From assembly GCA_000002435.2 (NCBI GenBank), contig CM018790.1: a stretch of 64,000 bases of DNA, one strand, 5' to 3'. The translations under genes and the position numbers were made by a program. This stretch comes from Giardia intestinalis. Lineage: Eukaryota. How positions within the stretch are numbered: position 1 is the stretch's first letter; every line of letters begins with the position of its first letter. Below the pieces are notes generated by a model. The model saw nothing but the letters and a program-made list of their open reading frames with translations, searched no databases and was not told the origin of the DNA. This document shows positions 2,332 to 21,279 of this stretch, piece by piece.

Positions 2332-2734
2332 TTTCTTTTTTTGGTACTAACGGTGATCATAATAGTGCCTCTAACTCAGAGATAAGCCACTATGATATCT
2401 ACTGGAGTATTACTAGCTTAATTACGAGCATACTATTAGATATCTCTTGGCAGAAAGAGGCTGTCGCTTGTCAGTAGAAAAATAAGGAGGAAGGTTTATT
2501 TTCTCGAATTATCTGCGTAATTCTAGCGAGTTTTGTGTCTGTCGCCACTGAGCTTGTTGACTAGGTAGTCAATATAAGGCATGTTAGGTGCCATACATTG
2601 TTATCATGAGTTTTGGGCTGATTTCATCAATCTGATAGCGAATGACCTGTACATGTAATACACTGATATAGCTGCTTCACTATAGCCCAGGATGAAGAAT
2701 TAGACGCAGGGTTTTGCCGAGACATGTAGGCAAG

Positions 2735-3991
2735 CGCGCGGGGACGCCTGTCTGCAGGGGGCCGCAGCCCCAGGCGTCTCATCCCGGGCGCCGCACGCTG
2801 CACCCCTGGACTCGGTCCCTCGGGGCCCTGAGCATGCCTCCACACTGCGCGGGACAGAACCTGCTCACCAGGAGCTGAGGAGATGCCCCGCTCAGTGCCC
2901 ATGCCGACGACACATCCATCTTCCATAGTAGCAACAGTGACGCGACGGGGGTAGTCACAGAGGCGGCAGGCCTGGCGAAGCGATTGGCTCGACGGTCAAC
3001 ACTGACAAGTATAGGAACACAGAGGGGCAGGAGGCCTCCTTCCTGGCCGGTCGAAGGAGCTCCCAGGGCAACGGAGGGCCGAAGCTAGTGATGGCACTAA
3101 TCACTCGCCGTGCTGGTTGAGACGGACCCACACGCAACCCATGTGAATCCCTCGACAAGAGATGGGGCCCCTGGGGTGCTTGGCTGACAGAGGCGGACTG
3201 ATCCTGCCCACACCGGAGAGCGGTGACCTGGGCCACCTGCCGGGCGTCTGCCGCAGCAGCTGGCAGTGCCTGACACCCTCGAGTGGACAGGCGCCGGTTG
3301 TAGAGAGACGACCTCGATGAACCGGTCCTGACCGCTCCTGGTGCCTCAGACGACGCCTCTCAGAGAGGTGGCCCTGGACCGACGCCTCGGTGGACCGAAG
3401 CATCACCCAAGTGTGCTGTGCAGATGGACCAGCCCACACGTCACCGAGCCAGACGCACTGCACAGGGTGAGCGCCGACATGATCTCGTGCTGGGTGACGG
3501 ACCACCTGCAAGAGTGCACTGCGATCCATGAGTAGGAGGGCAAACCAGGGCCGGACCTCTCCCCCGACACAACGCATGGGAGTACTCTGCCGGCATCCGC
3601 GAACGCGTACTATGACTCCAAGATAGAGGCGCACGGGGAGCGCATCCTTGATAATGGAACAGATGGTGCCCTCCACGAGAAGATGAAGAGGCACCCCGAG
3701 GAACGAGGTAGGCACCCGGGGTCGTGGCGTATCCTATCTTCGTCATGAAGCATCAGCACCACAAAGCTACTCCGGAGTACATGGCCAGAGTCAATTGCTC
3801 TCGAGACTAGATCGCTGTGACCGACACAAGGCCCGAGACAACGGATGCTCAATAGATGTCAGACGATGGTTGACCCCGACGGGCCAGAGAGAAGAGACGC
3901 CCCGGAGCATATAGTGGAGCACCCAACGGCTCCCAGGCGGGATGCACAAGGCTCTTCTCCAGAGTGGGCGGCATCCGAGCTTCGGACTCTG
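2735..3991. repeat. Left arm of a 1257-bp GC-rich (about 62%) inverted repeat; reverse complement of 11165-12421
   Basis: Six pairs of track ORFs have identical translations on opposite strands (e.g. 3101..3715(-) = 11441..12055(+); 2627..2926(-) = 12230..12439(+)). Boundaries were placed by base-by-base comparison. Only 1-2 mismatches were noticed (PEHIVEH vs PERIVEH). The arm is GC-rich with ORFs in all frames, so it is read as non-coding. Confidence 0.85.
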
Positions 3992-3998
3992 GACGGGT

Positions 3999-6120
3999 TT
4001 ACTCGGACAGGAGCTGGCAAGCCGACCTTGATGAAGAAGAGCAGATCTCGTTTGAGAAGATGTCTACTATCTCTTTGCGATCCTTCTTCTTAGCGATATT
4101 GAGGGCAGTGGTACCAGGCGAGTGACCATGGCAGCTGCAGGTTGTCTTCAGATATTTCTCGTTTTCTTTAGGAAGTCTTGTACATTCCACGGTGTTGCTA
4201 TATGCTGCGTTCATAAGGGCGATCCCCCTTGGTCGTTTGCATGCCGCCTTCGCCCTTCAGCAGGGGCCTGACACACTCTGGATGGCCATTGCACACCGTC
4301 CATGTGAGGACAGTCTGATGCTCGTTGTTCTTTATACGAGCTTCTTGCTTGAGCAGCTCTACACTCCCTTCGTGCCCTCGTGCTGCTGCATACATGAGCT
4401 CCGTCCACCCTGAGATACTGCTCTCATACTCCATCAAAAGCTCAACGTGCCCAATATAGTCCACCAGGGGGTCATTGGAACGATTGCACCGTGCCGCGAA
4501 TACGAGAGCGGTCCAACCGCCTACTTTCTCTCCCTTTTCGTGTTCCACTAGCAGTTCTACTATTTCTGCGTATCCATTGCCGCAGCCACCATCAGAGCTG
4601 TTCCTTTGCGCATGTACCATCCGCTTCTTGTGACCTCTTTGTATGTTTTCCTCCCCCTCTGGATGGGTAAGAGTGCTTTTACAGCCCCCGCGTCGTTTCT
4701 ATTGACAGCTCGCATGAGCGCCGTGACGCCGTTCTCATCGGTTGGGTCGATGGCCTCCACCACGGTTCCATGTCCTGCCTCTGCCGCAATCACCAAGGCC
4801 GTCTTGCCTTCGCTGCCGATCCGGTCCTTCTCATATGGGACCAGAAGGGAGGCAGCTCTTGCATAGTCCTCCTCTGTGGCGATCATCAGGTAGTCCAGCC
4901 ATTCTTGTCCTGGAGGCCCCTCTCCTCCCCAACAAGCAACTCGACGGGACTGACGTGCCCCTGCTCGTCGCGCTGACCAACGCCGAGTCTTTCTTCAAGC
5001 AGCATCCAGACGGTCTCCGTGCTATTTGTGTGCAGCACGCATCAGCCCGGGCAACAAAAAGAGGCTGGACTGAGGGTCAGTCGTGTTCATCCTGTCACCG
5101 AACTGTGCAAGCCTATTCTCCAGTGCCTTACTCATGGCTAGATGCTCCTTACCTTGGTCTTCAAGTGCGTCGATCTTAGTAGATCTAGTCTTAACATCCT
5201 CTTCCAGCAACGCGATCCTGGCGTTAGCGCCATTCAGCGCAGCCTCCAAGGATCCGCACTTATACTTCAGCATCACGCACTGACCTCCCAACTCACCAAC
5301 TGGGATGTCGAATGTAGCGAGCGTCTCGTGCAGCTCCCTGGCCGTCGGCCTCCTCTCTGGCTCCAATACGAATATCCGCTCCAGAACACTCTTTATGAAG
5401 CCATCAGTGACACCGCTCAGGTCCGGCCTCCACCCATCGATGAAGACCTCTGCTGGCTCCTTGCCCCCCAAGAAGTCCGGTCTCCTCAGAGTAGTAAGTT
5501 CATAAATGATGACCCCGAGGCTCCATACATCAGAAGCGGGGCTGGCCTCATTACGGAGGAGCGCCTCGGGGGCCATGTATACTGCCGTGCCTGCAATGGT
5601 GCTCCCGCATCTCAGGGCGTCCTTACAGAGGCCGAAGTCGGCGATGACGAAGCGCTCTCCGTCTGCGCTGATGAGGACGTTGGCAGGCTTGAGGTCGCGG
5701 TGGACGAGGCCCTTAGCACCTACCCCACTAAGGCCGTGGAGGTAGGCGAGGGCGGCGGCGACCTGCTTCATGACAGAGAGGATCATAGCGATAGGGACGG
5801 GGATCTTCCTTCGTTTGTGCTCGGTGAGGAGGTTGTCAAGAGTCCTGCTGTGCCGGTCCGTGACGACGTAGATGAGGCCCTCGTCTTCAATCACTTGATG
5901 ATACTTGAGGACCCGGGTGAAAGATGTTAAGAAGGGCGGCCAGCCTACGCTTAATAGCATCCACACCGTGCTGATCCAGACCGTCGAGCCGGATCTCCTT
6001 CACAGCAAGGTGGGGGCATCCCCTGAGAGAGTAGATAACACTGAAGGCCCCCGCTGAGCACGGGGATGCCACCAGCGCCCATCGGCTCTGCAAAGCCGCT
6101 AACTGCACTGTTACTAGCAA
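3999..6120 (-). pseudogene. Decayed NEK-kinase/ankyrin-repeat (Protein 21.1-like) gene with at least 3 frameshifts
   Basis: The kinase N-lobe (GAFSVIY…LAVKEI) is in frame of 5887..6120. The catalytic core (HRDLKPANVL, ADFGLCK, YMAPE) is in 5022..5966. The ankyrin repeats are split over three frames (4560..4886, 4198..4620, 3999..4214). All are on the minus strand and contiguous. Confidence 0.55.
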
Positions 6121-6754
6121 CTCCTAGGGCGCCCTCTGCGGTGGCTGGGACAGGGAGTGGAGTCAACAGCCGCAGCTGATTTTAACTGCAATCCGGAGCC
6201 ATCCTTTGGAGTGGCCTTGGCTACTACCCGAGCAAGGCGCCCAGTGTGAGCTGTCGATGGCAGGCCAAGGAGAGGCATACTAACGGCTTGTATGGCCTTA
6301 AGCAGGCCGGATCCTGGAGGCCGACGCGGAGTGCCCCAGACAGAGTATGCCGATCAGGGACCACACTGAGCTCTGGATGCATCACTAGGGAGAACTCTCG
6401 TCATGTTATCCACAACCAGCCATCGTCTCCGGACGGTCGAGAAGTAGGCGCGGCTTACCCATGAGACCTCTGAGCGCACCTGCAGGCGGGGTCAGTGATA
6501 CAGTGACAGCAATGTACAGGAGTGCGCCCCGAGCAATCACTCCACAAGAGAGGTGCGGTCTGAGTCTGGCCCTCACTGGTCCTGTTCCTATGGAAGTCAG
6601 AGAGAACTACACTATCAGCTGGCCTCTGGTTGGTGTGCTCCTATCTCGTCCTTCTCCGGTCCAACTGATCAAGAGAGCAAGAGCGGCTGTCTCTCACTGC
6701 TCGCGGTCAATGCACAAGTCTGATGAAAGAGCAGTGGCACGTGTACTCCGGCTA

Positions 6755-9700
6755 ATGTTGGTAGGATTTCTCCTAGTTTGTGCAACAGTGCTGGCAAAGG
6801 ACAGTGGGAAGACCGCGCAGTGTGACGGAGACAATGGCTACACGCTCCAGGGCGACGCGTGCACCAAGGCGGCTCCTGACAACGCGTGCCAGACCCTGGG
6901 AACCGCCGGGTGTGCCACGTGCGACTCGGGTAGCGGCGGGGAAACCTGTCTTACATGCAAGAAGGACGCGCAATACGTCGCGGCCAACAAGAAGAGCTGC
7001 AAGGATGCCTGCGACACGAGCGGAGGAGAGGTAATAGACCAGGCTGCCAGCCCGGCGAAGGTCTGCAAGTGTGACGGAGACAATGGCTACACGCTCCAGG
7101 GCGACGCGTGCACCAAGGCGGCTCCTGACAACGCGTGCCAGACCCTGGGAACCGCCGGGTGTGCCACGTGCGACTCGGGTAGCGGCGGGGAAACCTGTCT
7201 TACATGCAAGAAGGACGCGCAATACGTCGCGGCCAACAAGAAGAGCTGCAAGGATGCCTGCGACACGAGCGGAGGAGAGGTAATAGACCAGGCTGCCAGC
7301 CCGGCGAAGGTCTGCAAGTGTGACGGAGACAATGGCTACACGCTCCAGGGCGACGCGTGCACCAAGGCGGCTCCTGACAACGCGTGCCAGACCCTGGGAA
7401 CCGCCGGGTGTGCCACGTGCGACTCGGGTAGCGGCGGGGAAACCTGTCTTACATGCAAGAAGGACGCGCAATACGTCGCGGCCAACAAGAAGAGCTGCAA
7501 GGATGCCTGCGACACGAGCGGAGGAGAGGTAATAGACCAGGCTGCCAGCCCGGCGAAGGTCTGCAAGTGTGACGGAGACAATGGCTACACGCTCCAGGGC
7601 GACGCGTGCACCAAGGCGGCTCCTGACAACGCGTGCCAGACCCTGGGAACCGCCGGGTGTGCCACGTGCGACTCGGGTAGCGGCGGGGAAACCTGTCTTA
7701 CATGCAAGAAGGACGCGCAATACGTCGCGGCCAACAAGAAGAGCTGCAAGGATGCCTGCGACACGAGCGGAGGAGAGGTAATAGACCAGGCTGCCAGCCC
7801 GGCGAAGGTCTGCAAGTGTGACGGAGACAATGGCTACACGCTCCAGGGCGACGCGTGCACCAAGGCGGCTCCTGACAACGCGTGCCAGACCCTGGGAACC
7901 GCCGGGTGTGCCACGTGCGACTCGGGTAGCGGCGGGGAAACCTGTCTTACATGCAAGAAGGACGCGCAATACGTCGCGGCCAACAAGAAGAGCTGCAAGG
8001 ATGCCTGCGACACGAGCGGAGGAGAGGTAATAGACCAGGCTGCCAGCCCGGCGAAGGTCTGCAAGTGTGACGGAGACAATGGCTACACGCTCCAGGGCGA
8101 CGCGTGCACCAAGGCGGCTCCTGACAACGCGTGCCAGACCCTGGGAACCGCCGGGTGTGCCACGTGCGACTCGGGTAGCGGCGGGGAAACCTGTCTTACA
8201 TGCAAGAAGGACGCGCAATACGTCGCGGCCAACAAGAAGAGCTGCAAGGATGCCTGCGACACGAGCGGAGGAGAGGTAATAGACCAGGCTGCCAGCCCGG
8301 CGAAGGTCTGCAAGTGTGACGGAGACAATGGCTACACGCTCCAGGGCGACGCGTGCACCAAGGCGGCTCCTGACAACGCGTGCCAGACCCTGGGAACCGC
8401 CGGGTGTGCCACGTGCGACTCGGGTAGCGGCGGGGAAACCTGTCTTACATGCAAGAAGGACGCGCAATACGTCGCGGCCAACAAGAAGAGCTGCAAGGAT
8501 GCCTGCGACACGAGCGGAGGAGAGGTAATAGACCAGGCTGCCAGCCCGGCGAAGGTCTGCAAGTGTGACGGAGACAATGGCTACACGCTCCAGGGCGACG
8601 CGTGCACCAAGGCGGCTCCTGACAACGCGTGCCAGACCCTGGGAACCGCCGGGTGTGCCACGTGCGACTCGGGTAGCGGCGGGGAAACCTGTCTTACATG
8701 CAAGAAGGACGCGCAATACGTCGCGGCCAACAAGAAGAGCTGCAAGGATGCCTGCGACACGAGCGGAGGAGAGGTAATAGACCAGGCTGCCAGCCCGGCG
8801 AAGGTCTGCAAGTGTGACGGAGACAATGGCTACACGCTCCAGGGCGACGCGTGCACCAAGGCGGCTCCTGACAACGCGTGCCAGACCCTGGGAACCGCCG
8901 GGTGTGCCACGTGCGACTCGGGTAGCGGCGGGGAAACCTGTCTTACATGCAAGAAGGACGCGCAATACGTCGCGGCCAACAAGAAGAGCTGCAAGGATGC
9001 CTGCGACACGAGCGGAGGAGAGGTAATAGACCAGGCTGCCAGCCCGGCGAAGGTCTGCAAGTGTGACGGAGACAATGGCTACACGCTCCAGGGCGACGCG
9101 TGCACCAAGGCGGCTCCTGACAACGCGTGCCAGACCCTGGGAACCGCCGGGTGTGCCACGTGCGACTCGGGTAGCGGCGGGGAAACCTGTCTTACATGCA
9201 AGAAGGACGCGCAATACGTCGCGGCCAACAAGAAGAGCTGCAAGGATGCCTGCGACACGAGCGGAGGAGAGGTAATAGACCAGGCTGCCAGCCCGGCGAA
9301 GGTCTGCAAGTGTGACGGAGACAATGGCTACACGCTCCAGGGCGACGCGTGCACCAAGGCGGCTCCTGACAACGCGTGCCAGACCCTGGGAACCGCCGGG
9401 TGTGCCACGTGCGACTCGGGTAGCGGCGGGGAAACCTGTCTTACATGCAAGAAGGACGCGCAATACGTCGCGGCCAACAAGAAGAGCTGCAAGGATGCCT
9501 GCGACACGAGCGGAGGAGAGGTAATAGACCAGGCTGCCAGCCCGGCGAAGGTCTGCAAGTGTGACGGAGACAATGGCTACACGCTCCAGGGCGACGCGTG
9601 CACCAAGGCGGCTCCTGACAACGCGTGCCAGACCCTGGGAACCGCCGGGTGTGCCACGTGCGACTCGGGTAGCGGCGGGGAAACCTGTCTTACATGCAAG

Positions 9701-10798
9701 AAGGACGCGCAATACGTCGCGGCCAACAAGAAGAGCTGCAAGGATGCCTGCGACACGAGCGGAGGAGAGGTAATAGACCAGGCTGCCAGCCCGGCGAAGG
9801 TCTGCAAGTGTGACGGAGACAATGGCTACACGCTCCAGGGCGACGCGTGCACCAAGGCGGCTCCTGACAACGCGTGCCAGACAGAGAACTGCCAGGAATG
9901 CACTAGCAAAGGCACGGCCAACGAGGTCTGTACAAAGTGTACTTCTACTCATTACTTGACACCAACAAACCAGTGCGTACCTGACTGCGCAGCCATCAGC
10001 GGATACTACGGAGATACTGACAAGAAGTGTAAGCCATGCAGCCTTGAGTGTGCTGAGTGCGTTGGGCCGGCCAACAATCAGTGCAGTGCCTGTCCTGCTG
10101 GCAAGAAACTGACATATACAGATGACAGCCATCCTAATAACGGAGGCGCCTGCGGGGATGCGTGCAAAGTGTCTGCAGATGGCACTGGCTGTGAGACATG
10201 TGGGGCCCAAATAGGAGGAACTGCATACTGCTCAAAGTGCAAGACCTCTACTCAGGCCCCCTTGAACGGCAACTGTGCGGCCAATTCACGAGCAGCCTTC
10301 TGTGCAACAATCACAAATGGGGCCTGTACACAATGCAATGAGGGTTACTTCCTCAAGGACGGCGGCTGCTATCAGACAGATAGACAGCCTGGTAAGCAGG
10401 TGTGTAGTAGTGCACAGGGAGGAACATGTCAGACGTGTGCCAACGGACTGCAGGCACAAGGTGGGGCCTGTGGGGAGTGCCATTCTACTTGTGCTACGTG
10501 CTCGACTGCAGGTGCGGCTGATAAGTGTAAGACCTGTGCCACTGGGTATTACAAGACAAGCGATAGTGATGGCCCGTGCATGAAGTGCTCAGAGAAGATC
10601 TCCGGATGCAAGCAATGTGTGTCGTCATCTGGCAGCTCAGTCATATGTTTAGAATCAGAAGTAGGCACTGGTGGAAGCGTCAACAAGAGTGGCCTCTCCA
10701 CGGGGGCCATAGCCGGTATCGCTGTTGCTGTGATTGTTGTTGTAGGTGGTCTTGTTGGTTTCTTGTGTTGGTGGTTCCTGTGCAGAGGAAAGGCGTAG
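6755..10798 (+). CDS. vsp: Variant-specific surface protein (VSP) with 12.3 tandem 83-aa Cys-rich repeats; signal peptide MLVGFLLVCATVLA; KDGGCY motif; C-terminal TM plus CRGKA
   Basis: The track ORF is 6461..10798. The first ATG that gives a signal peptide is 6755, since 6461-6754 is GC-rich without signal features. The protein has dense CXXC motifs and ends …GGLVGFLCWWFLCRGKA, the hallmark Giardia VSP tail. AGTAAAC follows 13 nt after the TAG stop. Confidence 0.85.
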   Translation: MLVGFLLVCATVLAKDSGKTAQCDGDNGYTLQGDACTKAAPDNACQTLGTAGCATCDSGSGGETCLTCKKDAQYVAANKKSCKDACDTSGGEVIDQAASPAKVCKCDGDNGYTLQGDACTKAAPDNACQTLGTAGCATCDSGSGGETCLTCKKDAQYVAANKKSCKDACDTSGGEVIDQAASPAKVCKCDGDNGYTLQGDACTKAAPDNACQTLGTAGCATCDSGSGGETCLTCKKDAQYVAANKKSCKDACDTSGGEVIDQAASPAKVCKCDGDNGYTLQGDACTKAAPDNACQTLGTAGCATCDSGSGGETCLTCKKDAQYVAANKKSCKDACDTSGGEVIDQAASPAKVCKCDGDNGYTLQGDACTKAAPDNACQTLGTAGCATCDSGSGGETCLTCKKDAQYVAANKKSCKDACDTSGGEVIDQAASPAKVCKCDGDNGYTLQGDACTKAAPDNACQTLGTAGCATCDSGSGGETCLTCKKDAQYVAANKKSCKDACDTSGGEVIDQAASPAKVCKCDGDNGYTLQGDACTKAAPDNACQTLGTAGCATCDSGSGGETCLTCKKDAQYVAANKKSCKDACDTSGGEVIDQAASPAKVCKCDGDNGYTLQGDACTKAAPDNACQTLGTAGCATCDSGSGGETCLTCKKDAQYVAANKKSCKDACDTSGGEVIDQAASPAKVCKCDGDNGYTLQGDACTKAAPDNACQTLGTAGCATCDSGSGGETCLTCKKDAQYVAANKKSCKDACDTSGGEVIDQAASPAKVCKCDGDNGYTLQGDACTKAAPDNACQTLGTAGCATCDSGSGGETCLTCKKDAQYVAANKKSCKDACDTSGGEVIDQAASPAKVCKCDGDNGYTLQGDACTKAAPDNACQTLGTAGCATCDSGSGGETCLTCKKDAQYVAANKKSCKDACDTSGGEVIDQAASPAKVCKCDGDNGYTLQGDACTKAAPDNACQTLGTAGCATCDSGSGGETCLTCKKDAQYVAANKKSCKDACDTSGGEVIDQAASPAKVCKCDGDNGYTLQGDACTKAAPDNACQTENCQECTSKGTANEVCTKCTSTHYLTPTNQCVPDCAAISGYYGDTDKKCKPCSLECAECVGPANNQCSACPAGKKLTYTDDSHPNNGGACGDACKVSADGTGCETCGAQIGGTAYCSKCKTSTQAPLNGNCAANSRAAFCATITNGACTQCNEGYFLKDGGCYQTDRQPGKQVCSSAQGGTCQTCANGLQAQGGACGECHSTCATCSTAGAADKCKTCATGYYKTSDSDGPCMKCSEKISGCKQCVSSSGSSVICLESEVGTGGSVNKSGLSTGAIAGIAVAVIVVVGGLVGFLCWWFLCRGKA
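6821..9883 (+). repeat. Tandem array of 12 complete plus 0.3 copies of a 249-bp unit inside the VSP CDS, with no differences seen between copies
   Basis: The unit tgtgacggagacaatggcta… recurs at 6821, 7070, 7319 … 9809 with a period of exactly 249. Every repeat-derived ORF translation is identical. Each unit has 10 Cys (CATC, CLTC, CKDAC). Confidence 0.9.
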
Positions 10799-10810
10799 AT
10801 GTACTTAGAT

Positions 10811-10817
10811 AGTAAAC
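10811..10817 (+). terminator. Giardia poly(A) signal AGTAAAC for the VSP
   Basis: AGTRAAY consensus 13 nt downstream of the stop codon. Confidence 0.6.
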
Positions 10818-11164
10818 ACGTCACTAGTGGTGCAGCTGCCGACAAGCGGGTGCGCCTTATGTACGTTGCTAGCCTGCAACCGGGAGAAGGGGTGGCCGCT
10901 TCCCTGCCCCCGAGCGTGCTCTGCACAGCGCCGTTGACACCGTCATGGCCGAGAACGGTGCACTCGATATCCTGCGCCTGCCGATGAGCTGCATCGATGC
11001 GAGGAGAGCAGCCCAGCTCCACAGCTCGTCTGCTTCTGATGGGATCTATTAGCACGCGTAGGCAGCCCGAACAGTCTTATTTTTGCTTCGGCGAACTGGG
11101 CAAGATCGGAGTTTAATGGCAGTTGAGGCAAGTGAAGGCAGGCCCCTTGCTCCCAGGCAGTGTT

Positions 11165-12421
11165 CAGAGTCCGAAGCTCGGATGCCGCCCACTCTGGAGA
11201 AGAGCCTTGTGCATCCCGCCTGGGAGCCGTTGGGTGCTCCACTATGCGCTCCGGGGCGTCTCTTCTCTCTGGCCCGTCGGGGTCAACCATCGTCTGACAT
11301 CTATTGAGCATCCGTTGTCTCGGGCCTTGTGTCGGTCACAGCGATCTAGTCTCGAGAGCAATTGACTCTGGCCATGTACTCCGGAGTAGCTTTGTGGTGC
11401 TGATGCTTCATGACGAAGATAGGATACGCCACGACCCCGGGTGCCTACCTCGTTCCTCGGGGTGCCTCTTCATCTTCTCGTGGAGGGCACCATCTGTTCC
11501 ATTATCAAGGATGCGCTCCCCGTGCGCCTCTATCTTGGAGTCATAGTACGCGTTCGCGGATGCCGGCAGAGTACTCCCATGCGTTGTGTCGGGGGAGAGG
11601 TCCGGCCCTGGTTTGCCCTCCTACTCATGGATCGCAGTGCACTCTTGCAGGTGGTCCGTCACCCAGCACGAGATCATGTCGGCGCTCACCCTGTGCAGTG
11701 CGTCTGGCTCGGTGACGTGTGGGCTGGTCCATCTGCACAGCACACTTGGGTGATGCTTCGGTCCACCGAGGCGTCGGTCCAGGGCCACCTCTCTGAGAGG
11801 CGTCGTCTGAGGCACCAGGAGCGGTCAGGACCGGTTCATCGAGGTCGTCTCTCTACAACCGGCGCCTGTCCACTCGAGGGTGTCAGGCACTGCCAGCTGC
11901 TGCGGCAGACGCCCGGCAGGTGGCCCAGGTCACCGCTCTCCGGTGTGGGCAGGATCAGTCCGCCTCTGTCAGCCAAGCACCCCAGGGGCCCCATCTCTTG
12001 TCGAGGGATTCACATGGGTTGCGTGTGGGTCCGTCTCAACCAGCACGGCGAGTGATTAGTGCCATCACTAGCTTCGGCCCTCCGTTGCCCTGGGAGCTCC
12101 TTCGACCGGCCAGGAAGGAGGCCTCCTGCCCCTCTGTGTTCCTATACTTGTCAGTGTTGACCGTCGAGCCAATCGCTTCGCCAGGCCTGCCGCCTCTGTG
12201 ACTACCCCCGTCGCGTCACTGTTGCTACTATGGAAGATGGATGTGTCGTCGGCATGGGCACTGAGCGGGGCATCTCCTCAGCTCCTGGTGAGCAGGTTCT
12301 GTCCCGCGCAGTGTGGAGGCATGCTCAGGGCCCCGAGGGACCGAGTCCAGGGGTGCAGCGTGCGGCGCCCGGGATGAGACGCCTGGGGCTGCGGCCCCCT
12401 GCAGACAGGCGTCCCCGCGCG
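11165..12421. repeat. Right arm of the 1257-bp inverted repeat (partner of 2735-3991)
   Basis: Reverse-complement identity with the left arm. Inner edge: cagagtccgaag = revcomp of cttcggactctg at 3980-3991. Outer edge: identity stops at 12421/2735. Confidence 0.85.
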
Positions 12422-12593
12422 GGTGCTCACGAACGTTGAAAGAGAATATTTACAGTTGAACCCTCAGCTTACATCAGCGTTCTTCAGGGTAGTCATCTTT
12501 TAATAGAGCATATTATAGAGATATCTACGCATATGACTAGCATGTGACTATAGATAGGACCAATTCAATCCTTTAAAAAGATCATCCTTCAAA

Positions 12594-13055
12594 ATGACTA
12601 TCTTCGATCTTCTGTTCAATTCTGAGACTAGTAACGTTAAATCAGTCCATAGGGCTCCTCATACACTTATCTTTCTTGCATTTGTCTGTACAAAATGCGG
12701 CGAAAAGACGAAAGAGATAGGAATATGCCCCGAGGATAGGGTAGAAATACCTAATTCTAAGGGTGACACCAACATGCACTACAAGTGCAAAGGATGTAGT
12801 TCCAGATGTAATGTAGATATCATTTCCGAAGCCACCTTTGCCCCAGAAGACGCAGGTCCAACTGGAGCACGCGTTGCCACGGTCGAGTGTCGAGGATCGC
12901 TGCAGCCACTAAAATGGTACTATGATCAGTTGATCGTCACGTCTGCCAGTGGCACAGAGCTAAAGGCTTCTGGCAGTGACCCAGACTGGTGTGATTATGA
13001 TGAACTACTAGAGGAGCAGGTGGAGCTGACCGAGATGAGGTTTACTGTGCAGTAA
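12594..13055 (+). CDS. DUF866 / CXXC-motif zinc-binding protein (C1orf123/CZIB family), 153 aa
   Basis: CTKCGEK … CKGCSSRC zinc knuckles, …VECRGSLQPLKW… and a C-terminal DPDWCDYDE…MRFTVQ, resembling human C1orf123 (VEFECRGLEPVDF … KDWTDYDEK…). AGTAAAT overlaps the stop. Confidence 0.6.
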   Translation: MTIFDLLFNSETSNVKSVHRAPHTLIFLAFVCTKCGEKTKEIGICPEDRVEIPNSKGDTNMHYKCKGCSSRCNVDIISEATFAPEDAGPTGARVATVECRGSLQPLKWYYDQLIVTSASGTELKASGSDPDWCDYDELLEEQVELTEMRFTVQ

Positions 13056-17702: not shown

Positions 17703-20700
17703 ATGAGTCACTTCGGGATCAAGTACCAGGTCTCCGACATTGTCAGCAACGACGTGTATCTGAAAATCAGCCAAGGAAAGAGGCGATCTGATGGCGCTCT
17801 GGTAACTTTTAGGGAATTAGACTACCACAATCTAATCAGTGCAAACATGCCCCTGAACTTTTATGAGCTCGAGGCTCATAGCAAGATAAATCACTATGCC
17901 ATTTGCCGCATTGAAGAAATGCACCACGATCAGCACAGGTCGCGTCTCTTCCTTGTCACGGAGTTTTGGGACAATAAAACACTTGCCGATCTTACCAGCG
18001 CTCATAAGCAGACGGGGGTGCCCGTTCCAGAAGATCTTGTCTGGCGAATCTTAGTCCACGCAAACGAGGGCCTCTTTTACTACCACAGTGTGTTCAAAAG
18101 CAACGCCCCTGATGTTCGGCGTATCTTGCACAGACACATCACCCCACAATCCATCGTTATGAGGAATAATGGAGCCGTTAAGATCGTCCACCCAGAGATA
18201 CCCTATCTGATTGCTATTCGGGATCACTCCAACATTTCCCCTGAGGAGAAGAAGTACGTTGCTCCAGAGGTGCTGGGAGGCAGGGGATTCTCGGACCGTT
18301 CTGACATATATGCTCTCGGCTGCATCATCTATCAGTTGTGTACGCTGCGCAACTTTGCCGACGTGTTCAAGAATGATATTTCTTACTACACTAATCCGCG
18401 CACCACGGTCCCCAATCCAGAACCCAACGGAGGCCGTATGTATACTGCCTTACTCCCAAACTATTCCCAGGAACTGAATGAAATTATCGGGAATATGACG
18501 GCATTTGATGAGACGCGTCGCTTCACCAGTAACGATGTGCGCAACTTCCCCAAATCTCGCCACGTTCTAGACCAGGACCTGGGGAGTGGTATCTACAAGT
18601 ACGCTAGCACGGATTACAACCCGGACGTCTATAAGGAAATTTTCACACCAGGGCATACGACCGATCCCATGTACAGTAGGAACACCCTTACCAGCACAGG
18701 GTATCTTACCAATCCGCCAGAGACGTATGCACCGAGTACATTTTCGCCATCAGGAACTCAGCTAACGACTACCTTCCCGCAGAGTACAGAGGTTGTGGAA
18801 GGAGATCCGTCATTTGCAAGTTCGGGGAAGAAGTCTCGATCAGCTTCGAAGACGGGCCGTGCAAAAACACCAAAGGAAAAAACTTCCAGGGCGAAAACTC
18901 CCAAGGCAAAGACGCCTAAAACGAAGACTCCTAAGACAAAAGGGAAGAGTCTTAGGGACGCCGAATCGACAGAATATTATGATCCACCTACAGCAGATAT
19001 GAATCTTTACCATAGCCCTACTGCAACAACAGTGATGCGCTCGACATACAATATCCCCACTGCAGATAATTATCAACCTCTTATCTACACAGAGAAGCCA
19101 TACTATGATCCTGGAACATCAACGTTTAGGGCAATGCCCATTTCAGATCGCGTATCGGCCAGCCCAGATAACCGTGGCCGTGGGCCTGCAGGTGTTACAA
19201 ACAGTTATGGAGGCACTAGCAATAGACTATCGTGGAACGAGCATGCCGATTACGACACTCAGTCGGAAGTGCCACGTCTAAGAACACCTGGCCTAACAAC
19301 CTCGGTTCCATCTCAGGCTGGGACTCCTCGTGAAGCCATAGAGGTGTACTCTCAACCTTCCCAGTACTCAACACGCTCTATGCGTAGTACCACAGAGCGC
19401 GATAACACGGGACAAGCAAAGAATAGGCGGCACTCTAGTAGCCGCGATCTCGACTATGTTATTCCTGAATACATCGACGAGCTCCTACGCGACATCATTG
19501 CTAGCAAGTTCGGACAAAAAGCAAACGTTGATAACATCCTTCAAGAGCTTTATAAAGTTGTTCCGGGAACACTTTTAACCGAGGGACGCAAGGTCTATGC
19601 TCCAGACGATATCGTCCAGATGCTAATGCTCAAAGAGGAGCTCGAGCGCAAGGTGGAGCCGTATCTCAATCGACTGACGATTCCGAATAGCACTACTTCG
19701 AAGGGAAGCTACAGTTATGGATCCTATCGCGACGACGACTCTATAGATAGATCACCCCACACTACTTACAGGACATCAAGCAATTCCACAACTCATCTGA
19801 GCATCAACACGATGAACCCCACGGAGACGCGTGGAACCCTCCTCAAGGACAGAACCATGACCAGCAGACTCCACACCAAGTCATTCAACGACCACACGCC
19901 TGATACTGTTAACAACCTCCGTGATTCTCAAGTATTTTCGGGGGAGGATACAGTCTCTAACGATCTGACTCCGCTGATGCGCGCTGCAATCCGCAATGAC
20001 GTGGACGCTGTTGAGTCTTCCATTTCCGAATATGGCGGATACAGCAATCTGACTGGAAACACGGCTCTTATGATGGCAGCATCTAAGAATAATTATAACG
20101 TGATACCGAAGTTAATTCCTCGCGAAGCAAAGATTGTGGATCGTGATGGCTTGACCGCTCTCAATTACGCTGCATACTACGGTCACGTCGAGTCTGTCAA
20201 ACTGCTTATGGATCATGAGGCAGGCATTCAATCAAACTATGGGCAGACAGCATTGATGGCGGCGTGCGACCGCCAGCATTTGAACATCGTTAAGCTGCTA
20301 AAGCATCGAGAGGGTGGACTTGTCAATAACGTCGGGGAGACCGCGCTTATGAGGGCCGTAAAGGCAGGAAATACGTTCATCGTGCAGGAGCTTTTGGATA
20401 CGGAGGCCGGTATCAGAAACCAGGACGGAGAAACAGCTCTTATGCTCGCCGCTCACGCCGGCAACATGAGTCTTTGCAGAGCGTTACTTGCGAAAGAAAT
20501 AGGTCTCCAGTCTAAGTACGGGCAAACGGCTCTCATGGTGGCAGCACAACGCAATAACATGCAGCTTTGCGAGCTCCTTATTGGCCGTGAGGTCAATCTT
20601 AAGGATAATTCGGAAGAAACTGCCTTGATGAAGGCGGCCAGGGTTGGTGCCACTGATGCCGTCCGTTTTCTGATGAACTTTGAGGCAGGGATGAAGGGCA

Positions 20701-21056
20701 GGGACGGTATAACAGCCCTGATGATAGCTGCTGAAGAGGGACATAAGGACATCGTCCAGCTGCTAATCCCTCGCGAGAAGATGATGGTGATGCGCGACGG
20801 TTCCTCTGCTCTGATGCTCGCAGTGTGTACGCGCCACCTGGAGGTGGTCAAGCTCCTGGCGCCCGTGGAGTCGAAGATGCAGAAGGCAACAGGGGAGACG
20901 GCTATGATAATTGCAATCCGTAACAAGCGCCCCGAGTGTGCCCGCCTGCTTCTGGAGTACGAGGGCAGCATGAAGCACAATGGAATGAATGTTCTTCAGA
21001 TCGCAGACGCAGAGGGCGAGTACGCGCTCGTCGAGGATCTGCGAGGCCTGGTGTGA
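17703..21056 (+). CDS. NEK-family pseudokinase with a central S/T/P/K-rich low-complexity region and C-terminal ankyrin repeats (Protein 21.1-like), 1117 aa
   Basis: Kinase-like fold without a catalytic Asp or DFG (LHRHITPQSIVM, HPEIPY) but with an APE-like VAPEVLGG. (KTPK)n run. At least 10 ankyrin repeats (TALMMAA…, LTALNYAAYYGHVESVKLLM…). AGTAAAC overlaps the TGA stop. Confidence 0.8.
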   Translation: MSHFGIKYQVSDIVSNDVYLKISQGKRRSDGALVTFRELDYHNLISANMPLNFYELEAHSKINHYAICRIEEMHHDQHRSRLFLVTEFWDNKTLADLTSAHKQTGVPVPEDLVWRILVHANEGLFYYHSVFKSNAPDVRRILHRHITPQSIVMRNNGAVKIVHPEIPYLIAIRDHSNISPEEKKYVAPEVLGGRGFSDRSDIYALGCIIYQLCTLRNFADVFKNDISYYTNPRTTVPNPEPNGGRMYTALLPNYSQELNEIIGNMTAFDETRRFTSNDVRNFPKSRHVLDQDLGSGIYKYASTDYNPDVYKEIFTPGHTTDPMYSRNTLTSTGYLTNPPETYAPSTFSPSGTQLTTTFPQSTEVVEGDPSFASSGKKSRSASKTGRAKTPKEKTSRAKTPKAKTPKTKTPKTKGKSLRDAESTEYYDPPTADMNLYHSPTATTVMRSTYNIPTADNYQPLIYTEKPYYDPGTSTFRAMPISDRVSASPDNRGRGPAGVTNSYGGTSNRLSWNEHADYDTQSEVPRLRTPGLTTSVPSQAGTPREAIEVYSQPSQYSTRSMRSTTERDNTGQAKNRRHSSSRDLDYVIPEYIDELLRDIIASKFGQKANVDNILQELYKVVPGTLLTEGRKVYAPDDIVQMLMLKEELERKVEPYLNRLTIPNSTTSKGSYSYGSYRDDDSIDRSPHTTYRTSSNSTTHLSINTMNPTETRGTLLKDRTMTSRLHTKSFNDHTPDTVNNLRDSQVFSGEDTVSNDLTPLMRAAIRNDVDAVESSISEYGGYSNLTGNTALMMAASKNNYNVIPKLIPREAKIVDRDGLTALNYAAYYGHVESVKLLMDHEAGIQSNYGQTALMAACDRQHLNIVKLLKHREGGLVNNVGETALMRAVKAGNTFIVQELLDTEAGIRNQDGETALMLAAHAGNMSLCRALLAKEIGLQSKYGQTALMVAAQRNNMQLCELLIGREVNLKDNSEETALMKAARVGATDAVRFLMNFEAGMKGRDGITALMIAAEEGHKDIVQLLIPREKMMVMRDGSSALMLAVCTRHLEVVKLLAPVESKMQKATGETAMIIAIRNKRPECARLLLEYEGSMKHNGMNVLQIADAEGEYALVEDLRGLV

Positions 21057-21061
21057 GTAAA

Positions 21062-21134
21062 CTGGACGATGGGGGATTTGAACCCCCGGCCTCGACGATG
21101 CAAACGTCGCGCTCTACCAACTGAGCTAACCGCC
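21062..21134 (-). tRNA. tRNA-Ala (anticodon UGC), 73 nt
   Basis: The minus strand reads GGGCGGTTAGCTCAGTTGGTAGAGCGCGACGTTTGCATCGTCGAGGCCGGGGGTTCAAATCCCCCATCGTCCA. Cloverleaf features: 7-bp acceptor with G3:U70 (Ala identity), D-arm GCTC/GAGC, anticodon loop TTTGCAT, T-loop GGTTCAAATCC, A73 discriminator. Confidence 0.85.
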
Positions 21135-21279
21135 CGTGCCAAGGGAAAAAATGCCAACATGCGCGAAAAGGTACTTCAAAGGTTTCTAGGTCTCTAAGGA
21201 TGTGTCGGGGGCTTCTGCAGACGATCCGCGGAGGGCCCCTACCAAATGAAAATTCAAAAAAATCATTTCAATTTTGAAT

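Follow-up and report, generated by a model that had tools for sequence, protein, structure and literature searches.

Within a 64,000-nucleotide stretch of Giardia intestinalis contig CM018790.1 (assembly GCA_000002435.2), hereafter the window, we analysed the gene GL50803_0050345, which very probably encodes a real, translated, repeat-bearing variant-specific surface protein (VSP) whose cysteine-rich module was amplified in frame, in an array that either arose very recently or is under continuous homogenisation and that forms the bulk of the exposed antigenic surface. Tandem Repeats Finder (TRF) reported a single tandem array in the whole window, with a 249-bp period, 12.3 copies, 100% matches, no indels and a score of 6128. 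A base-by-base test showed that the period of 249 is exact across 3064 nt (12.305 copies), with no mismatch in any of the 12 full units, and a second repeat search returned the same array. The approximately 2800 successive matches at lag 249 cannot be due to chance. Past position 9882 the periodicity stopped at once, with just 30% identity to the expected continuation of the unit. Every unit comprises 83 codons, including 10 cysteines and 2 CXXC motifs, and the array is in frame with the VSP gene, where it provides 1021 of the approximately 1303 ectodomain residues (78%). An earlier sequence-only reading of the window had described 12.3 perfect copies of an 83-aa, 10-Cys unit at 6821-9883, filling about three quarters of a VSP ectodomain; our results agree at the DNA level, the real edges (Table 1) being offset by no more than 2 nt.

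VSP hallmarks of GL50803_0050345 and its antisense frame

The coding sequence specifies 1347 aa with 163 cysteines (12.1%) and 38 CXXC motifs. Although the mechanical open reading frame (ORF) begins at 6461, the ATG at 6755 was taken as the start because a TAATGTT initiator spans it and the hydrophobic leader MLVGFLLVCATVLA comes next; an exact look-up of the longer ORF from 6461 found no entry in the protein collection. The protein is identical to XP_037901708.1 / KAE8302141.1, annotated as 'VSP' in Giardia intestinalis ATCC 50803 / WB clone C6, and it matched the Pfam VSP family PF03302 with 241 bits (cut-off 31.4) and E=2.5e-71, so that the assignment to this family made by the sequence-only reading holds. 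VSPs are recognised by a C-terminal transmembrane (TM) domain followed by an invariant CRGKA (Xu 2020, PMC7000408; Adam 2010, PMC2996952), by a cysteine content of about 11-13%, mostly as CXXC, together with a GGCY motif, by a signal peptide at the N-terminus, and by an initiator (T/C)AATGTT over the start codon with a conserved AGTAAAC poly(A) region at the 3' end. Besides its 12.1% cysteine, GL50803_0050345 has a GGCY motif at residues 1203-1206 and a 25-residue TM segment upstream of the CRGKA tail that had already been noticed in the translation. Its C-terminus reads ...AIAGIAVAVIVVVGGLVGFLCWWFLCRGKA, in columns whose conservation across 75 VSPs is at least 90%. Its 14 N-terminal residues are hydrophobic and were predicted as a signal peptide in Table S1 of a preprint on VSPs (bioRxiv 10.1101/2022.03.07.483299), the leader MLVGFLLVCATVLAKDSGK is common to other repeat-bearing VSPs (P0007, GL50803_0050225), and the 3' motif TACTTAGATAGTAAACACGT with AGTAAAC follows the stop codon.

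The same preprint places GL50803_0050345 on NC_051857.1 with 4044 nt, 1347 aa, the initiator (Inr) taatgtt, 163 cysteines and 38 CXXC motifs (Tables S1, S2), and gives it a matching signal peptide, TM segment and CRGKA, with the entry '12' in its repeat table. In Table S13, derived from re-analysed proteomes, the gene is marked 'Unique' and is among the 29 of 136 VSPs with translation evidence from unique peptides. A literature search did not find the ID GL50803_0050345 in the main text of any paper. The gene, its 12 repeats and the general phenomenon of repeat-bearing VSPs are already annotated or published, and in this sense the gene is real but ordinary.

We propose that the product would be a type I membrane protein consisting of a 14-aa signal peptide, a short linker, the 12.3 identical 83-aa modules and a C-terminal part, the latter formed by a cysteine-rich VSP body of 309 aa without repeats, the conserved TM helix and the CRGKA tail. 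The module would have been copied in frame through unequal recombination or replication slippage between copies, and the resulting array would either have expanded very recently or be held uniform by ongoing unequal exchange and gene conversion. GL50803_0050345 would be one of more than 130 alternative VSPs, of which a trophozoite shows one at a time. The rod-like array would then form most of the exposed surface and presumably be immunodominant, making the repeat the dominant epitope if this VSP is expressed.

On the opposite strand, a 1145-aa ORF runs across the array, long and unbroken as a real overlapping gene would be. The sequence-only reading had called it a phantom of a stop-free repeat, and we share that view. 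The ORF is codon-aligned with the sense frame, and its existence is owed solely to the codon content of the repeat, because an 83-codon unit without TTA, CTA and TCA, once repeated, yields 1145 codons free of antisense stops; on either side it stops where one of these codons is first met beyond the array, at sense codons 7 (CTA) and 1160 (TCA). The non-repetitive part of the VSP gene contains 7-11 stops in every antisense frame, no Pfam family scored above threshold for the antisense product, and the ORF is unannotated, the VSP and the gene after it having consecutive accessions. We rejected it as a gene, the probability of a real one being negligible.

The module in other VSPs, its homogeneity and its predicted fold

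A search with the unit against collected Giardia VSP proteins found the module in about 30 other VSPs, at 1 to 5 copies and with all 10 cysteines conserved. Approximately 20 proteins carry it once (e.g. WB GL50803_0050332 (P0006), DH P0005 and the 185-aa XP_001706456.1). Two copies are present in P15 P0004, P15 P0008, P0095 and P0022, three in DH P0028, four in P0007, which is named 'cysteine-rich protein' and begins with exactly this leader, MLVGFLLVCATVLAKDSGK, and five in VSP AS7 and P0049, against 12.3 in GL50803_0050345. An alignment of 44 distinct modules gave the pattern C-x-L-x2-AGC-x-TC-x(6-8)-CLTC-x(11-12)-K-x-C-x3-C-x(12-24)-C-x-C-x(3-5)-GY-x(5-6)-C, which covers 10 of the 10 cysteines. 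Among VSPs the module is an ancestral building block and, defined as it is by the alignment and by a confident structural model (see below), it could be used as the structural unit in which VSP ectodomains are described.

Homologous arrays were found in P15 (assemblage E; 264 bp x 1.9, internal identity 100%) and in DH (A2; 243 bp x 3.0, internal identity 99%), while units from different genes share 62-74% identity. Identity within arrays combined with divergence between them is the classical signature of ongoing homogenisation or of repeated recent amplification. The periodic spans of WB and P15 start and end at differing points of the module, which suggests that the two arrays were amplified independently. 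The proposal of the sequence-only reading that zero divergence reflects rapid concerted evolution has indirect support: the arrays of other isolates are 99-100% identical internally and the units differ by 26-38% between genes, but a very recent amplification may account for the same data.

Under this latter explanation, a single very recent burst would have produced units that are identical through youth, with no continuing homogenisation, and the allele would be stable and of fixed length. It concerns the evolutionary mode only, and we regard it as possible but doubtful. The absence of differences across the 12 units, compared with 5 in 1265 positions between the flanking inverted-repeat arms (see below), would fit such a burst, as would the extremely low heterozygosity of WB (PMC11169602) and the different module points that bound the WB and P15 arrays, as for independent amplifications. 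However, the independent arrays of three lineages are all near-perfect, so that either each of them is young or turnover is continuous, and alleles of vspA6 and vspC5 differ in copy number, which demonstrates change in arrays of this kind (Adam 2010, PMC2996952). By analogy with vspA6 and vspC5, the array of GL50803_0050345 may also vary in copy number, in keeping with the length polymorphism that the sequence-only reading predicted.

Among known VSPs, the layout of GL50803_0050345 is that of VspA6 / CRP170 (vsp67) of Giardia WB, in which a short leader is followed by many near-identical units in one long in-frame array, then by approximately 1 kb of non-repetitive VSP sequence and a conserved 3' end (Adam 2010, Fig. 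1, type A). The repeats of VspA6 are immunodominant and their copy number is variable between alleles and relatives (Adam 2010), the near-identical units and variable copy number of vspA6 and vspC5 having been reported in papers dated 1994 and cited there. VspA6 differs in having a 195-bp (65-aa) unit of other sequence at approximately 22-25 copies, instead of 249 bp (83 aa) x 12.3, and in its location in a linear array on chromosome 4. The CRP-type VSP O97448 (P0007, 645 aa) shares the leader and is 81% identical in the C-terminal body, and homology to the 10-Cys module is recognisable in its repeat, although this is a 76-aa unit x 4 that aligns weakly with the 83-aa unit (approximately 18 bits); CRP65 / vsp27 (GL50803_38901), grouped with P0007, has its own repeat of 228 bp. 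The closest repeat units are those of the P15 'VSP with INR' P0004 and of the DH VSP P0028, which have perfect or near-perfect arrays followed by a similar VSP body, but with just 2-3 copies, other genomic neighbours and unit lengths shifted by small indels, and P0004 also has a different leader (MFAKLIF...). Finally, the single-module VSPs GL50803_0050332 (P0006), DH P0005 and GL50803_10562 (P0125) carry one module directly after the signal peptide; unlike GL50803_0050345 they are unamplified and represent the unexpanded state.

To model the fold, the last two modules and the rest of the protein (window 9371-10795) were submitted to AlphaFold2 with a 75-sequence alignment. The model had a mean predicted local distance difference test (pLDDT) score of 86.8 and showed an equal hairpin pattern in both modules, offset by 83 residues, and a C-terminal helix at the membrane anchor. 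A sequence search with the protein found no match to any solved structure. The best Foldseek matches in the PDB were R-spondin Fu1-Fu2 and the cysteine-rich domains of HER/EGFR, all of them weak, though consistent with one another (E at least 0.003, approximately 22% identity). From the model, we predict disulfide-locked beta-hairpins of furin-like / EGF-like type in the module and a long rod for the array, resembling the stacked hairpin modules of R-spondin Fu1-Fu2 and of EGFR/HER domains II/IV. This likeness to furin-like repeats is structural and weak, and carries no evidence of a shared function. SMART assigns furin-like repeats or EGF-type domains to part of the VSPs (bioRxiv 10.1101/2022.03.07.483299).

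Assembly history and copy number

In the first WB assembly, Adam 2010 (PMC2996952) catalogued 30 repeat-bearing vsp genes with units of 105-516 bp at 2 to more than 20 copies, preceded in the three examples of Fig. 1 by a leader of 66-99 bp, and warned that repeat copy numbers are approximate owing to condensation in the assembly. With a 64-bp leader and then 249 bp x 12.3 at 100% identity, GL50803_0050345 belongs to this repeat-bearing subclass. A comparison with the units of known repeat-bearing VSPs, as the sequence-only reading had proposed, found no 249-bp unit in the Adam 2010 table of first-assembly WB genes; the repeats nearest to it are those of P0007 and of the P15 and DH arrays. The gene is first present in the 2020 long-read assembly (Xu 2020, PMC7000408) and has a new-style ID only, being listed in the preprint without an old gene ID, and no close protein to its unique C-terminal 309 aa was found in the old WB annotation (best matches, DH P0005 at 92% and WB P0006 at 85%). 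Short-read (Logan) contigs with the neighbouring gene GL50803_005568, from many samples, all end 130-260 bp upstream of it. Since the 249-bp unit is missing from the 2010 catalogue and short-read contigs break beside the locus, it was evidently resolved with long reads only. The locus is a clean case of such resolution and fits the earlier remark that arrays of this kind assemble poorly; short-read mapping, RNA-seq quantification and peptide counting over the array call for care.

Several points weigh against our interpretation of GL50803_0050345. Its copy number and the perfect identity of its units are those of one PacBio assembly in which Illumina reads were used for polishing (Xu 2020, PMC7000408); such polishing is able to wipe out small unit-to-unit differences, and the figure of 12.3 is that of the assembly. 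A second assembly of the gene was not found, the 90% cluster having 3 members, namely this gene and two unrelated short entries. A search with two units gave no near-identical protein and nothing above 68% identity, and the unit-to-unit junction was unmatched in a metagenome scan. As to the fold, Foldseek gave no match at E <= 0.001, so that the furin-like character is a resemblance and not a membership. Exact look-ups of the protein and of its paralogue P0006 in the contig index also gave no match, and in the other assemblies anchored at GL50803_005568 (short-read, DH and P15) all contigs stop within 0.1-2 kb, inside or at an inverted-repeat arm, without reaching the VSP.

It should be considered that the gene may be real while the length of the array, its zero divergence or both were produced by long-read consensus and short-read polishing over a 3-kb repeat. 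The absence of the gene from the first-assembly WB catalogue of 2010, its new-style ID, the caution of Adam 2010 on condensed copy numbers, the Illumina polishing of the PacBio draft (Xu 2020) and the breaks of short-read assemblies near the locus are all compatible with such an artefact. Nevertheless, the array is in frame, has clean edges and leaves a full VSP ORF, a PacBio read easily spans 3 kb, and unique peptides were reported for GL50803_0050345 (bioRxiv 10.1101/2022.03.07.483299). Moreover, the P15 and DH assemblies were built with other technologies than the WB reference and their arrays are also homogeneous, which makes homogeneity a property of the family and perfect identity unlikely as a polishing artefact of one pipeline. 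We consider this explanation improbable, and retain that of a genuine in-frame array that is very young or continuously homogenised.

Inverted repeat and neighbouring genes

The VSP gene and a remnant of a NEK-like gene are bracketed by a 1265-nt inverted repeat whose arms differ at 5 positions (99.6% identity) and enclose a 7.2-kb segment. The features of the locus are collected in Table 1.

Table 1 Features of the GL50803_0050345 locus, in window positions
Feature	Position	Strand	Source
VSP initiator TAATGTT over the start codon	6753..6759	+	Read in the sequence; 'taatgtt' in preprint Table S1
VSP coding sequence, 1347 aa + stop, GL50803_0050345 / XP_037901708.1	6755..10798	+	ORF listing, Inr, signal peptide, Pfam, exact match
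Predicted signal peptide MLVGFLLVCATVLA	6755..6796	+	Translation; same in preprint Table S1
Exact tandem array, 249 bp x 12.3 (83-aa, 10-Cys module)	6819..9882	+	TRF, base-by-base test, repeat search
Non-repetitive cysteine-rich VSP body, GGCY at 10361-10372	9883..10705	+	Translation, alignment
TM helix (AIAGIAVAVIVVVGGLVGFLCWWFL), then CRGKA cytoplasmic tail	10706..10795	+	Near-invariant columns in 75-sequence alignment; helix 451-472 in model
VSP 3' motif TACTTAGATAGTAAACACGT, poly(A) signal AGTAAAC at 10811-10817	10802..10821	+	Sequence; same 20-mer for this gene in preprint Table S6
Phantom ORF on the antisense strand, 1145 aa, in codon register with the sense frame	6773..10210	-	ORF listing, codon analysis
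Inverted repeat, left arm	2730..3994	.	Repeat search, mismatch count
Inverted repeat, right arm, next to GL50803_005568	11162..12426	.	Repeat search, comparison with DH and P15
NEK-like kinase/ankyrin gene, probable pseudogene, in three ORFs (4198-4620, 4560-4886, 5022-5966) upstream of the VSP	4198..5966	-	ORFs, Pfam, database matches

The arms are the edges of a 9.7-kb GC-rich island (2730-12426), with 55-64% GC compared with 41-46% outside. Coding, VSP and RNA searches of the two arms gave neither a recognisable gene nor a remnant of a VSP nor any Rfam family. The right arm, beside GL50803_005568, has 87% identity in DH and approximately 75% in P15, and is ancestral at that position in both assemblages, A2 and E; the left arm has apparently been copied there recently in inverted orientation. 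The assemblies of all the isolates examined break in or near the inverted repeat. According to Pollo et al. (PMC7048089), structural variants within an isolate are for the most part inversions and show enrichment at VSPs. That the island, with its NEK remnant and VSP, acts as a recombining cassette that flips or moves through exchange between its arms is an idea to which we give little weight. If it were true, inversion of the island would be one of those intra-isolate inversions, and such cassettes would offer a route for duplicating and reshuffling repeat-bearing VSPs.

The NEK-like kinase/ankyrin gene upstream of the VSP is probably a pseudogene, since it is broken into three ORFs, one of which corresponds to the hypothetical protein GL50803_113470 of the old WB annotation. 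A similar NEK remnant lies upstream of DH P0005 on DH contig L002, and P0005 has 91% nucleotide identity to GL50803_0050345 from position 9875, essentially the end of the array, onward. Because DH L002 combines a NEK remnant with P0005, shares identity from the end of the array and has other downstream neighbours, the NEK remnant and VSP together look like a duplicated cassette with an exchanged N-terminal part. P15 P0004 and DH P0005 were also considered as positional orthologues of GL50803_0050345, which they probably are not, their genomic neighbours being different.

Ahead of the VSP start, the reading frame is open back to 6461, and the 425 bp at 6276-6700 (+) share approximately 80% aa identity with the N-terminal extensions of other VSP database entries (P0062, P0047, P0075 and P0038). 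This segment is probably a conserved shared 5' flank, misannotated as coding in those entries. To the left of the inverted repeat, the approximately 2.7 kb at 1-2700 (41-46% GC) contain no ORF of at least 100 aa, in line with the gene-poor character of the regions around VSPs (Xu 2020, PMC7000408). Elsewhere in the window, a single tRNA gene (21063-21135, -; Rfam RF00005, 68.6 bits) lies directly after a NEK kinase gene (17703-21056). The neighbour GL50803_005568 (12594-13055, +), annotated as 'hypothetical protein', matched Pfam PF05907, a eukaryotic CXXC-motif zinc-binding protein, at E=1.2e-28 and has conserved counterparts in DH and P15.

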